Shown piece after piece: positions 1-5,314 of a stretch of 5,573 bases of DNA; within the stretch, counting starts at the first letter, position 1; each line of letters starts with the position of its first letter. The position numbers were made by a program, and so were the translations under genes. The stretch lies in the IMG/VR virus record IMGVR_UViG_2724679140_000005; one strand, given 5' to 3'. The DNA comes from a virus. Taxonomy: Duplodnaviria; Heunggongvirae; Uroviricota; Caudoviricetes. The notes under the pieces were generated by a model. The model was not told the origin of the DNA and did no database searches. It saw nothing but the letters and a program-made list of their open reading frames with translations.

Positions 1-174
1 ACAGTGCAGCAGCGCATCAGTGGCTTCCTTAAGCGTCACAGTGTCGCCATCACCCAGTCCTGCAATTTTTTCGTGCCTGACAAACGCCGCGCAAAGGTCG
101 TTAAACGCCCCTGCCCGCACATCCGCCAGGAAAGCGTTGGCAGCAGCCAAATCCTGGTAGTCAATCCCGCTCAC
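1..174 (-). CDS. Hypothetical protein, 5' part only (runs off the left edge); starts with GTG at 174-172, which overlaps the TGA stop of the upstream gene (GTGA)
   Basis: Minus-strand frame is open from 174 to position 1 (VSGIDYQDLAAANAFLADVRAGAF...). AGGAGG (complement of 183-188) lies 8 nt upstream of the GTG. Same orientation and coupling as the preceding gene. The plus-strand ORF 4..189 is the alternative reading. Confidence 0.4.
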   Translation of the reverse strand, partial: MSGIDYQDLAAANAFLADVRAGAFNDLCAAFVRHEKIAGLGDGDTVTLKEATDALLHC

Positions 175-593
175 AGTACCGCCTCCTGAAAATTACCCTG
201 ATAGAAAGCCAGTACACGCTGCATAACTTCGCTTTTACGACACTCAGTACAAATTATATTATGACGCCTGTCATAGCGGCGTATTTCTCCGTCTGGTAAT
301 GACCATATAATGTCCGGATCAACCGCAGATGGTTTCTTCAGCTTTGCCCTTGAGAGCTTTTTACGGGCATTTTGCCAGTCCTTACGCGCCTGTTCAGACG
401 GGAATAACCCGTAACCAGAGCTGTATACATCGCCACTGGCAACCAGCTCTCTGGTCAGAACGCTCATCAGATATCTTGTTGCCCCAGTTTTAGCTTCCAG
501 TTGTCGTAACGTCTCGCGCCCACTCTGGCGTACGAGTTCAACAACCAGCCCTTTAATTTTTTCCCGCTCTTCTTGTGTAAAAACTTTTGCCAC
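171..593 (-). CDS. Hypothetical phage protein (140 aa) immediately downstream of the replication initiator; function unknown, possibly replication-associated
   Basis: ORF-track ORF with GTG start at 593-591 preceded by AGGAGG (complement of 598-603, 4-nt spacer). No Walker A motif, so not an obvious DnaC-type loader. Stop overlaps the next start (GTGA at 171-174). Confidence 0.6.
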   Translation of the reverse strand: MAKVFTQEEREKIKGLVVELVRQSGRETLRQLEAKTGATRYLMSVLTRELVASGDVYSSGYGLFPSEQARKDWQNARKKLSRAKLKKPSAVDPDIIWSLPDGEIRRYDRRHNIICTECRKSEVMQRVLAFYQGNFQEAVL

Positions 594-636: not shown

Positions 637-1710
637 TCACCTGAAGCCCGGCGGAATTTCGTTATCCGGTTCAGAAATATGATTCACACAACGCTGGCTG
701 TTCGTGCCGCTTACCGGGAGCAACCAGGGGTTCTCAAAATTCCGGTCCGGTCCAAAAAACGTCGTCGCTCGCTGAACAAATTCCGTTCCCGTTTTCCCGG
801 TAGTCGCCAGGTATCTTGCGTAACGCCTCACGCCATCCAGCATGGCCTCTGGTGGCACCCCCTCGCGTAATCTGGCCTTCCAGGCACTGAAAGCGGATTT
901 CTTCGGGTTTGCTCCGGCACGCAACGGGTACTCCCGCCAGACCTGTTCGAACACATCCGGATAATCCACTCGTCCCACAGACTGCCCGGTGTTTTCCGGG
1001 ACTACCCGATCGGCTTCCCGCTGAATGGCGGAATCGGCTTCGGGCTGCTGCAGTTGGTGTGATTGCTCCGGCCTTGCGGTCATCACCTGCTGCACAGCGC
1101 CCGAATCGGCTTTCAGCGCATACGCTGAATCGGCTTCCGGTGTCGTGCCTGCTGGCTGACCAGGATTGACGGTCTGAACATCCCCTGCCTGGTTCGTGGC
1201 GTTTTTTACGCCATGGACCATAGTGTTTTGATCTTCTTGATCTGTATCTTTATCTGTATCTTTATCTGTCGTGACTCGTCGTGACATGTGCGTGACATTT
1301 CGTGACGCGCCGTGACAATCGCTATTTTGTTCCCGCTTTCTTTCCCTCTCTCGCTGCGCCCTCTTGCGCTCTGCAGGAGATTTTGCGGTTTGCGAAATAT
1401 TGCCGTTGTCCTCTTTCAGCACCTGGCGTTTTTCCCATCCAGTGATTAAATCACCATCAAGTACCCGCCCCTGCATCGTCTGCAAAATTGAATCAATTAC
1501 CTCTTCTGTCACGTCGAGCGCACTTGCCAAATCTTCTGTCGTGACATCAATGTGACCTCGCGTGACATTTCGTGACGCGCTCACCAGGAGGTGGATATAC
1601 ACTGCCATCACTGTTGCAATTGGCTGCCCTGACACCCTGGCAATTGTTCGCCACTTAGGGTCATTTGGCATGTCATGCCATAATCTGAGCCAGGCGTTAG
1701 CCATACTCAC
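637..1710 (-). CDS. Phage replication initiation protein (lambda O-like / replisome organiser), with iteron clusters inside its N-terminal coding half
   Basis: 357-aa ORF. The N-terminus (AWLRLWHDMPNDPKW...VMAVYIHLL) resembles replisome-organiser N-terminal domains as I recall them. Position directly after ydaS-ydaT matches Rac/Qin-type replication modules. The track start is GTG at 1710; ATG at 1704-1702 with AGAGGTG just upstream is the more likely initiation codon. Confidence 0.8.
   Translation of the reverse strand: MSMANAWLRLWHDMPNDPKWRTIARVSGQPIATVMAVYIHLLVSASRNVTRGHIDVTTEDLASALDVTEEVIDSILQTMQGRVLDGDLITGWEKRQVLKEDNGNISQTAKSPAERKRAQRERERKREQNSDCHGASRNVTHMSRRVTTDKDTDKDTDQEDQNTMVHGVKNATNQAGDVQTVNPGQPAGTTPEADSAYALKADSGAVQQVMTARPEQSHQLQQPEADSAIQREADRVVPENTGQSVGRVDYPDVFEQVWREYPLRAGANPKKSAFSAWKARLREGVPPEAMLDGVRRYARYLATTGKTGTEFVQRATTFFGPDRNFENPWLLPVSGTNSQRCVNHISEPDNEIPPGFR
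1241..1268. repeat. Tandem 12-bp repeat (tctgtatcttta x2 plus a partial copy), relatively AT-rich; encodes the DKDTDKDTD linker of the replication protein
   Basis: Direct reading: tctgtatcttta at 1241-1252 and 1253-1264, then tctgtc. Sits immediately next to the iteron cluster. Confidence 0.7.
1269..1320. repeat. Iteron-like cluster 1: five CGTGAC/GTGAC copies at ~10-11 bp spacing; candidate origin of replication inside the initiator gene
   Basis: GTGAC at about 1271, 1281, 1292, 1302 and 1312. Contains the 20-mer cgtgacatttcgtgacgcgc (1291-1310), which recurs exactly at 1561-1580. Confidence 0.6.
1541..1580. repeat. Iteron-like cluster 2: four GTGAC copies at ~10-11 bp spacing, including an exact 20-bp copy of the cluster-1 element
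   Basis: GTGAC at 1541, 1552, 1562 and 1572. 1561-1580 is identical to 1291-1310. Confidence 0.6.
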
Positions 1711-1775: not shown

Positions 1776-2201
1776 TCAATGTACTGCCACAGCATTTCCT
1801 GCCGGGCCACCACGGTTCATCTGATTGAAACCGGCGATTGCCACTGCGACAAAATCATCAGCGTCTCTCACCAGTCGCTCCCGCGTCTCCACCAGCTCCC
1901 GAAAATAAGCTGAACTGTGGCTGCGCATTCTGGCCACCAGCAAAGGTGGCATTGCCTTTTCGATCGCTGGTAACAACGCCTGAATTTTTTTAACCGCATC
2001 AGGAGTGTCTTTCTCCACCCAGCGGAAAATTTTCTGGGTATTGCGAGCCAGGGCTTCCGGATGGCTGTCGTCGTACAGCTCAGGAAACGTCATGCCCAGC
2101 TCGAAATAAGCCCTGGTTATCCTGGCTGCTGGCACTTTTTCACCGTCCGGATGCGCCCAGGCATTCATCGCCATGCGGATATGCTCATGCTTGATTTTCA
2201 T
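1776..2201 (-). CDS. ydaT: YdaT-like protein (CII-like regulator of Rac-type prophages)
   Basis: 141 aa beginning MKIKHEHI and ending ...VAVH, which resembles E. coli Rac YdaT as I recall it. Start ATG (2201-2199) overlaps the ydaS stop (ATGA). Confidence 0.8.
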   Translation of the reverse strand: MKIKHEHIRMAMNAWAHPDGEKVPAARITRAYFELGMTFPELYDDSHPEALARNTQKIFRWVEKDTPDAVKKIQALLPAIEKAMPPLLVARMRSHSSAYFRELVETRERLVRDADDFVAVAIAGFNQMNRGGPAGNAVAVH

Positions 2202-2500
2202 GAATCAACTCCATCAGATAAGCATGCACTACAATCACCTTCAGCATGAACTACATGCGTTTGCCCCAAACGAATGCCGCTCGCATACTCAGGCCAAATA
2301 AGTTCCCAATCATGGGGTCGTAGCTCCGCCCTACTTACTTGGCCTTCCGTAGCAGATTCGATCATAAGGGCGCGGGTTGGAGATATAGCTGCTCGTCCAG
2401 ACGCCATTTGCGATAAGTAAGATGGCGATACACCAAGTCTGGCCGCGAATTTCTTAGCATCACCAACCCTCAATGATTTAATAAACTCTTTTAATGTCAT
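2198..2500 (-). CDS. ydaS: Cro-like HTH regulator, YdaS family
   Basis: 100 aa with an HTH segment (AARLGVSPSYLSQMASGR) and an IESATEGQVSRAELRP motif resembling YdaS. GAGGAAGG RBS just upstream of the ATG at 2500. Divergent from the repressor gene. Confidence 0.8.
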   Translation of the reverse strand: MTLKEFIKSLRVGDAKKFAARLGVSPSYLSQMASGRAAISPTRALMIESATEGQVSRAELRPHDWELIWPEYASGIRLGQTHVVHAEGDCSACLSDGVDS

Positions 2501-2596
2501 ACCTTCCTCGATTTAGTGTTTTTTGCGAGTTTAGTGTTTAATAAACCATTAAGTCAAGTATTTGCTTGTTTAGTGATTACTAAAGATAATTACCAC
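2501..2596. promoter_or_regulatory. Divergent control region (OR/PR/PRM-like) between the cro-like ydaS and the CI-like repressor, with repeated operator-like motifs
   Basis: TTTAGTGTT at 2512-2520 and 2530-2538, TTTAGTGA at 2569-2576, and the near-palindrome GTTTAATAAAC at 2535-2545. AT-rich 96-bp gap between divergent starts. Confidence 0.55.
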
Positions 2597-2968
2597 ATGC
2601 AAAAAAAAGAAATTCGCCGTTTACGTCTCAAGGAGTGGTTTAAAGATAAAACTCTGCCACCCAAAGAGAAGAGCTACCTATCTCAACTAATGAGTGGGAG
2701 AGCCTCGTTTGGAGAAAAGGCTGCCAGAAGAATAGAGCAAACATACGGGATGCCGGATGGGTATCTAGATGTGGAATACGCAGAACAACCTGAGGTTTCT
2801 CCACCACATGCAGGGTTAACGTCTAATCAACTGGAATTATTGCAGATTTTTTCAGCCTTCCCTGAGGATGAGCAACGCCAGATAATCAGCGAGTTAAAGC
2901 AGAAAAAAGAATCAATGGAAGATCTCATAGCGAGATGGATTGCGGCGCAAAAATGCCGCCGCGCCTGA
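2597..2968 (+). CDS. paaR2: CI-like HTH repressor, likely PaaR2 (regulator of the paaR2-paaA2-parE2 module and probable prophage repressor)
   Basis: HTH region (KSYLSQLMSGRASFGEKAARRIEQTYGMPDGYLD) of lambda-repressor/XRE type. Divergent from the cro-like gene and directly upstream of paaA2-parE2. The track ORF starts at ATG 2516, but that N-terminal extension is hydrophobic and overlaps the operator repeats, so ATG 2597 (MQKKEIRR...) is preferred; start uncertain. Confidence 0.7.
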   Translation: MQKKEIRRLRLKEWFKDKTLPPKEKSYLSQLMSGRASFGEKAARRIEQTYGMPDGYLDVEYAEQPEVSPPHAGLTSNQLELLQIFSAFPEDEQRQIISELKQKKESMEDLIARWIAAQKCRRA

Positions 2969-2988: not shown

Positions 2989-3180
2989 ATGAATAGAGTC
3001 CTTTCACCAATGGTTTCTGAATTTGAAACCATTGAACAAGAAAACAGTTACAACGAATGGCTGCGTGCGAAAGTAGCAACAAGCCTTGCAGATCCGCGCC
3101 CAGCAATTCCCCATGACGAAGTTGAGCGCAGAATGGCAGAACGCTTTGCTAAAATGCGGAAGGAACGGAGCAAGCAGTAA
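2989..3180 (+). CDS. paaA2: PaaA2-type antitoxin (ParE-associated antitoxin)
   Basis: 63 aa (MNRVLSPMVSEFETIEQENSYNEWLRAK...KERSKQ) matching the PaaA2 antitoxin of E. coli O157 as I remember it; the paralog number is uncertain. GGAGG RBS 5 nt upstream of ATG 2989. The track's longer ORF from 2935 overlaps the repressor 3' end. Confidence 0.8.
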   Translation: MNRVLSPMVSEFETIEQENSYNEWLRAKVATSLADPRPAIPHDEVERRMAERFAKMRKERSKQ

Positions 3181-3181
3181 A

Positions 3182-3460
3182 ATGTTACCCGTGTTATGGC
3201 TTGAAAGTGCAGATACCGACCTAGATGATATAACTAGTTATATTGCTCGTTTCGACGTAGATGCGGCTGAACGCTTATGGCAGCGATTAAGGGGTTGTGT
3301 GCTGCCATTATCCGAACATCCGTATTTATACCCACCAAGCGACAGAGTACCTGGCTTGCGTGAGATTGTGGCCCACCCTAACTATATAATTCTATACCGC
3401 GTAACAACATCAAGCGTTGAAGTAGTAAACGTGATCCACGCAAGACGCCAGTTTCCCTAA
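3182..3460 (+). CDS. parE2: ParE-family toxin (ParE2-like, RelE/ParE superfamily)
   Basis: 92 aa from ATG 3182, one nt after the paaA2 stop. C-terminal signature typical of ParE (YIILYRV...VEVVNVIHARRQFP). The track ORF 3086..3460 is an upstream-extended version in the same frame. Confidence 0.8.
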   Translation: MLPVLWLESADTDLDDITSYIARFDVDAAERLWQRLRGCVLPLSEHPYLYPPSDRVPGLREIVAHPNYIILYRVTTSSVEVVNVIHARRQFP

Positions 3461-3530: not shown

Positions 3531-3580
3531 GGTTTAGTTTTTACTTGACTTAAGTTTAATGTTTATTAAACTAAATCTAC
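3531..3580 (+). promoter_or_regulatory. Candidate PL-like promoter for the ydfABC-dicF-dicB operon, with an operator-like motif shared with the 2501-2596 control region
   Basis: TTGACT (3545-3550), 16-bp spacer, TAAACT (3567-3572). Flanked by GTTTAGTTTTT (3531-3541) and GTTTATTAAACTAAATC (3561-3577), whose reverse complement GATTTAGTTTAATAAAC closely matches TTTAGTGTTTAATAAAC at 2530-2546. Confidence 0.45.
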
Positions 3581-5256: not shown

Positions 5257-5314
5257 TTTCTGGTGACGTTTGGCGGTATCAGTTTTACTACGTGACTGCT
5301 CTGCCGCCCTTTTT
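5257..5314 (+). ncRNA. dicF: DicF small regulatory RNA (antisense inhibitor of ftsZ translation) with intrinsic terminator
   Basis: Sequence beginning tttctggtgacgtttggcggtatcag... and ending ...ctgctctgccgccc followed by ttttt matches DicF as I recall it. Located directly upstream of dicB, as in Qin. Confidence 0.75.

Follow-up and report, generated by a model that had tools for sequence, protein, structure and literature searches.

Does the short gap between the divergent ydaS and repressor genes of this Caudoviricetes stretch carry the operators of a bistable switch, and which of its repeats are the units that the regulators recognize? A preliminary description, made from the letters of the 5,573-nucleotide window (the whole stretch of DNA analysed here), had seen in the gap a series of direct repeats laid out like a lambda-type OR region, with a repressor and YdaS as a CI/Cro-like pair. 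Our analysis identifies the window as the immunity region of a lambdoid prophage of the CP-933P type and assigns the 96-bp gap, with a probability of about 0.93, to the OR-type operator/promoter region of the CP-933P-type switch. As this locus has been characterized experimentally in a near-identical allele, the proposal is correct and already known.

Gene content of the window

Read from left to right, the window carries an O-like gene, ydaT and ydaS, the divergent paaR2-paaA2-parE2 genes and then DicF and dicB, with DUF1391/ydfC-type genes located in its right part between the parE2 side and DicF. The annotated features are:

171-593, minus strand: DUF977 protein
637-1710, minus strand: replisome-organiser (O-like) protein
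1776-2201, minus strand: YdaT (CII analogue), Pfam YdaT match
2198..2500, minus strand: ydaS, Cro-like anti-repressor of 100 aa, Pfam YdaS_toxin/HTH_3
2597..2968, plus strand: paaR2, CI-like repressor of 123 aa with the N-terminus MQKKE and an N-terminal helix-turn-helix (HTH)
2989-3180, plus strand: paaA2 antitoxin, Pfam PaaA2, co-transcribed with paaR2
3182-3460, plus strand: parE2 toxin, Pfam ParE_toxin, co-transcribed with paaR2
5258-5309: DicF small RNA, Rfam RF00039, 73 bits
5484-5573: start of dicB (cell-division inhibitor), 3' of DicF, as in Qin-type prophages

YdaS matched PDB 8C7K, 'Phage antirepressor protein Cro' (E=7e-63), as well as 8CO2, and PaaR2 matched 7NKV, 8C3K and 8C3L, 'Phage repressor protein CI' (E=1e-38); both designations are names given by the PDB depositors. 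A literature search on 8C3K, 8C3L, 7NKV, 8C7K and 8CO2, in which a protein-DNA complex was sought, returned unrelated chemistry papers only. The Pfam search of the window proteins gave no family match for PaaR2, and an S24 domain is absent from this protein.

Apart from the switch, the O-like gene contains two clusters of CGTGAC, at 1270-1316 and 1540-1576 (five and four copies, respectively, at a spacing of ~10-11 bp), which look like origin iterons, comparable to the lambda ori that lies in gene O; for YGTGAC, 12 occurrences in the window compare with 4.7 expected. The same gene carries at 1235-1270 the sequence TCTTTATCTGTA, a 12-bp unit repeated three times in tandem and encoding a DKDTDKDTD linker.

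The characterized control region of CP-933P

The same control region was mapped experimentally by Jurenas et al. (2021) in CP-933P of E. coli O157:H7 EDL933 (PMC8630535). Start sites of PR933P, serving ydaS-ydaT, and of PRM933P, serving paaR2-paaA2-parE2, were determined by 5' RACE, the former in agreement with the predicted PR promoter of CP-933P; paaR2 proved to be leaderless, and sequencing of the protein N-terminus gave MQKKE (PMC8630535). A 97-bp region was bound specifically by PaaR2 and by YdaS, each forming several gel-shift complexes. In DNase I experiments the PaaR2 protection was continuous over ~78 bp, and YdaS protected stretches of 27 and 32 bp, occupying PRM before PR, which required a higher concentration (PMC8630535). 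Four 18-bp inverted repeats at equal distances, sharing the half-site consensus GTTTAGTAA, were described, IR1 lying over PRM and IR3 over PR, and IR2 and IR4 each having one degenerate half, together with a second, overlapping scheme of three 'pseudosymmetrical' operators, OR1-OR3 (PMC8630535). With gfp reporters, both promoters were repressed by each protein and PRM was activated at low PaaR2. Beyond the toxin-antitoxin genes, PL933P with OL1-OL3 was repressed ~100-fold by PaaR2 or YdaS. Moreover, YdaT activates a PRE-like promoter, PaaR2 is not SOS-inducible, and bistability of the locus is seen at the single-cell level (PMC8630535). The published set comprises eight inverted repeats, none reported inside ydaS (PMC8630535); by our reading, four of the eight belong to OR and four to OL.

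This organization recurs in the window, where a gap of 96 bp (~97 bp in the published type) carries GTTTAGTAA-type repeats over PR and PRM, a PaaR2-type repressor gene is divergent from ydaS-ydaT, paaA2-parE2 lies downstream of paaR2 and is followed by OL/PL, and a TTGATT-N6-AATCAA YdaT box occupies the ydaS/ydaT junction. The multi-operator, OR-like bistable switch setting the repressor against YdaS, as put forward in the preliminary description, matches the experiments on the near-identical CP-933P region (PMC8630535). From this near-identity we infer that PaaR2 and YdaS would bind the repeats of the window and that its expression would be bistable.

Promoters and inverted repeats in the 96-bp gap

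The gap measures 96 bp, as had been stated, from the ydaS start (CAT at 2498-2500, minus strand) to the paaR2 ATG at 2597. IR1-IR4 were given coordinates from the text description in PMC8630535 combined with the window sequence, IR2 in particular from the 'four equally spaced' repeats of that work. PR hexamers were located by consensus scan, and PRM hexamers were read off the sequence. The elements are:

2511..2528: IR4, in which only the half-site ATTTAGTGT (2511-2519) is consensus-like; it holds the first TTTAGTGTT
2529..2546: IR3, GTTTAGTGTTTAATAAAC, composed of GTTTAGTGT and TTAATAAAC; exact GTTTA-N8-TAAAC
2528..2557, minus strand: PR for ydaS-ydaT, -35 TTGACT (2557 to 2552), 18-nt spacer, -10 TAAACT (2533 to 2528)
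2548..2565: IR2, weak, beginning ATTAAGTCA; coincides with two back-to-back -35 boxes
2568..2585: IR1, GTTTAGTGATTACTAAAG, composed of GTTTAGTGA and TTACTAAAG; GTTTA-N8-TAAAC with one mismatch, holding TTTAGTGA
2562..2590, plus strand: PRM for paaR2-paaA2-parE2, -35 TTGCTT (2562-2567), 17-nt spacer, -10 GATAAT (2585-2590)

The repeats start at 2511, 2529, 2548 and 2568, hence ~18-20 bp apart, and share a half-site of approximately GTTTAGTRW. IR4 surrounds the putative PR start within the ydaS leader, IR3 overlaps the PR -10 and spacer and includes the second TTTAGTGTT as well as a near-palindrome, and IR1 occupies the 17-nt PRM spacer. The PRM transcript starts at the A of the ATG at 2597, 7 nt past the -10, yielding a leaderless mRNA; this start site and leaderless translation are known from the identical CP-933P sequence.

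With respect to gene calling, the open reading frame 2516-2968 in the mechanical list of the window extends paaR2 upstream through IR1, and called paaR-type genes in two relatives (L071 859-1251 and L072 2170-2565) are prolonged to GTG, TTG or ATT-type starts, crossing IR1. Given that the leaderless ATG (MQKKE, METKE or MEKKE) is the true start, entries of 130-150 aa in databases probably start too far upstream.

The direct repeats listed in the preliminary description lie exactly where it had placed them, TTTAGTGTT at 2512-2520 and 2530-2538 and TTTAGTGA at 2569-2576, and represent the left half-sites of IR4, IR3 and IR1. Their interpretation as OR-like operators stands, whereas the units are 18-bp inverted repeats and not direct repeats; their dyad structure had been overlooked, as had the distal operators at 3532-3571. 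The near-palindrome GTTTAATAAAC is likewise present, although at 2536-2546, one base away from the position claimed for it (2535-2545). As an independent palindromic operator it was rejected, because it consists of the right arm plus the centre of IR3 and family conservation tracks the 18-bp dyad centred on 2537/2538.

A trivial explanation would be that the direct repeats reflect chance similarity within an AT-rich promoter region, unrelated to protein binding. The region is indeed AT-rich, and the arms overlap promoter hexamers, TAAACT being both the PR -10 and the outer arm of IR3. However, TTTAGTGWT was found three times vs 0.14 expected, a count reached in 0/200 shuffles. The half-site GTTTAGTRW, allowing ≤1 mismatch, occurs 15 times in the window vs 4.0 expected, with seven matches in 2478-2585 and four in 3532-3571. 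Neither this count nor that of exact TTTAATAAAC copies was attained in 200 shuffles. The full pattern GTTTA-N8-TAAAC is exact at both 2529 and 3554, with 0.002 exact matches expected per shuffled window, and is present with one mismatch at 2568. Arms outside the promoter hexamers are conserved as well, and binding has been demonstrated directly, so that the footprints already refute a chance origin (PMC8630535), which we consider vanishingly improbable.

Comparison with the E. coli O157:H7 copy and other alleles

The window was aligned with E. coli O157:H7 ATCC 35150, two further E. coli genomes and Escherichia phage Evi. Its gap differs from that of O157:H7 at two places only, both in IR4: position 2511 is A in the window vs G, and the T-run at 2520-2525 is T6 vs T7, the gap being 96 vs 97 bp long and the IR4-IR3 spacing 18 vs 19 bp. 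From 2526 through IR3 and IR1 to beyond the paaR2 start codon, the two sequences are the same. Within E. coli, allele differences in the gap are confined to these IR4 positions (2511 G/A and the T-run 2520-2525).

The control region was found in 592 of 5,426 complete E. coli genomes (~11%). None of the 5,426 contains the exact 141-bp allele of the window, the best matches being one base off; the T6 variant is present in at least seven complete genomes, and A at 2511 in none of the 5,426 (no 100% identical match). At the protein level, PaaR2 is 97% identical to the O157:H7 protein, its four changes (linker residues 54, 59, 66 and 67) falling outside the conserved N-terminal domain, and YdaS is 99% identical, with the single change A37T. 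The two IR4 changes of the window allele presumably leave function unaltered; these private changes could also retune PR repression.

Over a wider range, CP-933P/Sp12 of E. coli O157:H7 (PMC8630535) agrees with the window in gene content and order, in OL/PL, in the YdaT box and in a leaderless start of paaR2, whereas mosaic differences are found in the replication genes on the left and in those past PL.

Conservation in related loci

We compared 63 loci, comprising one genome per species, phage records and intermediate paaR-paaA-parE relatives, and calculated information content from 46 non-redundant sequences of Enterobacterales, Burkholderiales and Pasteurellales, three orders of Proteobacteria. 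PaaR2 homologues fall into two groups, one of ~123-130 aa and another of ~212 aa in which an S24 LexA/CI-type peptidase domain, PF00717, is present, the N-terminal domain of the latter being 70-85% identical to that of PaaR2 over ~58 residues. Upstream lies a common cassette of ~65 bp that reads GAGTTTA-N8-CTAAAC, N4-5, GTCAAGTATTTGCTT, GTTTAG-N5-TACTAATC, -10, ~6 nt, ATG. The divergent gene is YdaS-like in 50 of the 53 loci with this cassette, and in most relatives the ATG follows the -10 at a distance of 6-7 nt, a Shine-Dalgarno sequence being absent.

Across the 46 loci, the halves of IR3 carry 1.25-1.37 bits per position and those of IR1 1.05-1.25 bits, and the -35 boxes reach 1.37 (PR) and 1.56 bits. 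IR4 and the ydaS leader retain 0.2-0.35 bits, and the segment that separates the -10 from the ATG 0.11 bits. Centres and spacers of the inverted repeats are variable, and conservation reaches the arms outside the promoter hexamers. The preliminary description had held that repeats not conserved at homologous loci would speak against operators; IR3, IR1 and the -35 boxes are strongly kept, IR4 is not, and the operator interpretation survives that comparison on account of the conserved repeats. Relative to the repressor start, the 18-bp pattern gave 93 hits at -200 to -1 and 24 at +400 to +700, clusters corresponding to OR and an OL equivalent, respectively.

These data bear on whether all repeats of the gap are operators. 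Judged by sequence comparison, IR4 appears to be an auxiliary site limited to some lineages, the two -35 boxes would suffice to account for the conserved IR2 stretch, and the overall pattern favours IR3 and IR1 as core units. In a stricter version, IR3 and IR1 would be the only true operators of a two-site switch, with the IR4 half-site, IR2 and the copy inside ydaS incidental or weak auxiliaries. This would account for the retention of only IR3, IR1 and the promoter boxes in the 46 loci (IR4 at ~0.3 bits), for the restriction of E. coli variation to IR4, and for the loss of the ydaS copy at synonymous sites. Yet the continuous footprint of ~78 bp and the successive gel-shift complexes suggest more than two bound units (PMC8630535). 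Moreover, an ATTTAG half-site upstream of IR3 is found in the nearer paaR-toxin-antitoxin relatives, 16 nt upstream in L071, L073 and L074, with a similar one in Brenneria, and Pasteurellaceae loci have an extra GTTTAG between the -35 boxes. On balance, a strictly two-site switch seems rather unlikely, and a multi-operator OR is the preferred reading.

Several lineages show variant architectures. In Serratia, Yersinia, Erwinia and other genera (P0059-P0114; L024, L027-L030, L042), the PaaR2 N-terminal DNA-binding domain is fused to a C-terminal S24 domain, so that SOS-cleavable and non-cleavable repressors have a DNA-binding domain and an operator cassette in common. In Xenorhabdus and Photorhabdus (L007-L015, L022), the cassette is displaced upstream by ~60 nt relative to the repressor ATG; repressor mRNAs there consequently appear to have a leader, unlike those of most loci. 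Pasteurellaceae (L047, L051, L056, L059-L063) contain a ~10-bp insertion, with the extra GTTTAG between the -35 boxes and more GTTTAG upstream, which suggests a cassette variant with more operators.

A possible, if somewhat doubtful, evolutionary reading is that the PaaR2-type domain, the YdaS-type Cro and the ~65-bp cassette constitute one ancient module spanning the three orders, in which fusion has joined the domain to S24 or to a short oligomerisation tail, and paaA2-parE2 has been inserted between the repressor gene and OL.

The copy inside ydaS

The preliminary description had also pointed to a further copy of TTTAATAAAC within the 5' end of ydaS, and it is present at 2477..2486, where it corresponds to the minus-strand codons GAG TTT ATT AAA (E-F-I-K). 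Exact copies of TTTAATAAAC number three in the 5.6 kb, at 2477-2486, at 2537-2546 and, on the minus strand, at 3561-3570, the last missing from the earlier list. This copy might be a fifth, promoter-distal operator half-site, located exactly 60 bp from its IR3 twin: a 10/10 exact match within 60 bp of OR is mildly surprising, and the other two copies sit in IR3 and OL. Against this, three relatives with the same MTLKEFIKSL N-terminus (L071, L073 and L074) use other synonymous codons, TTTGATGAAT, with 3/10 bases changed at synonymous sites; the left flank of the ydaS copy has no matching half-site, and no ydaS site figures among the eight published repeats (PMC8630535). The copy is probably not an operator, and we rate a fifth operator at this position as very unlikely in view of the changed synonymous sites.

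Distal operators and the YdaT box

Two further regulatory regions were located outside the gap:

3532..3572, plus strand: OL/PL region, inverted repeats GTTTAGTTTTTACTTGAC (3532-3549) and GTTTAATGTTTATTAAAC (3554-3571)
PL, plus strand: -35 TTGACT (3545-3550), 16-nt spacer, -10 TAAACT (3567-3572), the same hexamers as PR
2191..2208: YdaT box (OM), TTGATTTTCATGAATCAA, exact TTGATT-N6-AATCAA, PRE-associated

The cluster at 3532-3571 was assigned to OL/PL because it combines PR-type promoter hexamers with conservation in O157:H7, where the region is kept; its repeat at 3554-3571 is a perfect GTTTA-N8-TAAAC. OL lies ~940 bp downstream in the window because paaA2-parE2 intervenes, a distance that fits the published idea of a toxin-antitoxin pair inserted into the immunity region. 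The YdaT box spans the overlap of the ydaS stop and the ydaT start, and a YdaT footprint on this box has been shown in CP-933P.

Discussion

Collectively, the window would operate as follows. On the minus strand, PR would drive ydaS and ydaT, the analogues of Cro and CII, and on the plus strand a weak PRM, divergent and back to back with PR, would drive the leaderless paaR2-paaA2-parE2 transcript. IR1-IR4 overlap both promoters and would be bound by the helix-turn-helix proteins PaaR2 and YdaS, the bases contacted by each being putative. PaaR2 would preferentially turn off PR, stimulating PRM at low and repressing it at high levels, and YdaS would preferentially turn off PRM; such mutual repression would generate two heritable expression states. 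The distal OL/PL (3532-3572) may, in addition, permit predicted looping by octameric PaaR2.

The likeness to lambda OR extends to shared operators over divergent PR and PRM for which the repressor and the Cro analogue compete with opposite preference, to a repressor that activates its own promoter at low level from a leaderless mRNA, and to a distal OL/PL set, repressor octamers and a CII analogue acting on a PRE-like promoter. In contrast, lambda has three 17-bp operators and the CP-933P type four 18-bp repeats ~19 bp apart, the place of lambda rexAB is taken by the toxin-antitoxin pair, and sequence similarity of PaaR2 and YdaS to lambda CI or Cro is undetectable. The C-terminal S24 domain and the Cro-family partner that characterize the lambda CI/Cro family are not found in this pair. 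Given the lack of protein similarity, a PaaR2 without S24 and four 18-bp repeats, the region works like lambda OR without being a homologous CI/Cro member.

The gene architecture is also that of Rac of E. coli K-12, where the repressor gene racR is divergent from ydaS-ydaT and the YdaT box is nearly identical. Identity to the Rac proteins is only 26% for CP-933P YdaS and 31% for CP-933P YdaT (PMC8630535). In Rac, the intergenic region is bound by YdaT as well; in CP-933P this is reportedly not the case.

Since the mechanism has already been published, the worth of the present finding lies in correct annotation, with the modest addition of a family-wide conservation map that speaks for IR3 and IR1, 18-bp repeats of the GTTTA...TAAAC type, as core units of recognition. 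The switch sets the expression of prophage ydaS-ydaT vs the repressor/toxin-antitoxin operon, and through it prophage immunity in pathogenic E. coli is coupled to a ParE-type toxin-antitoxin pair. In view of the strong conservation of both operator and DNA-binding domain, a single immunity specificity may be shared by many such prophages across genera.
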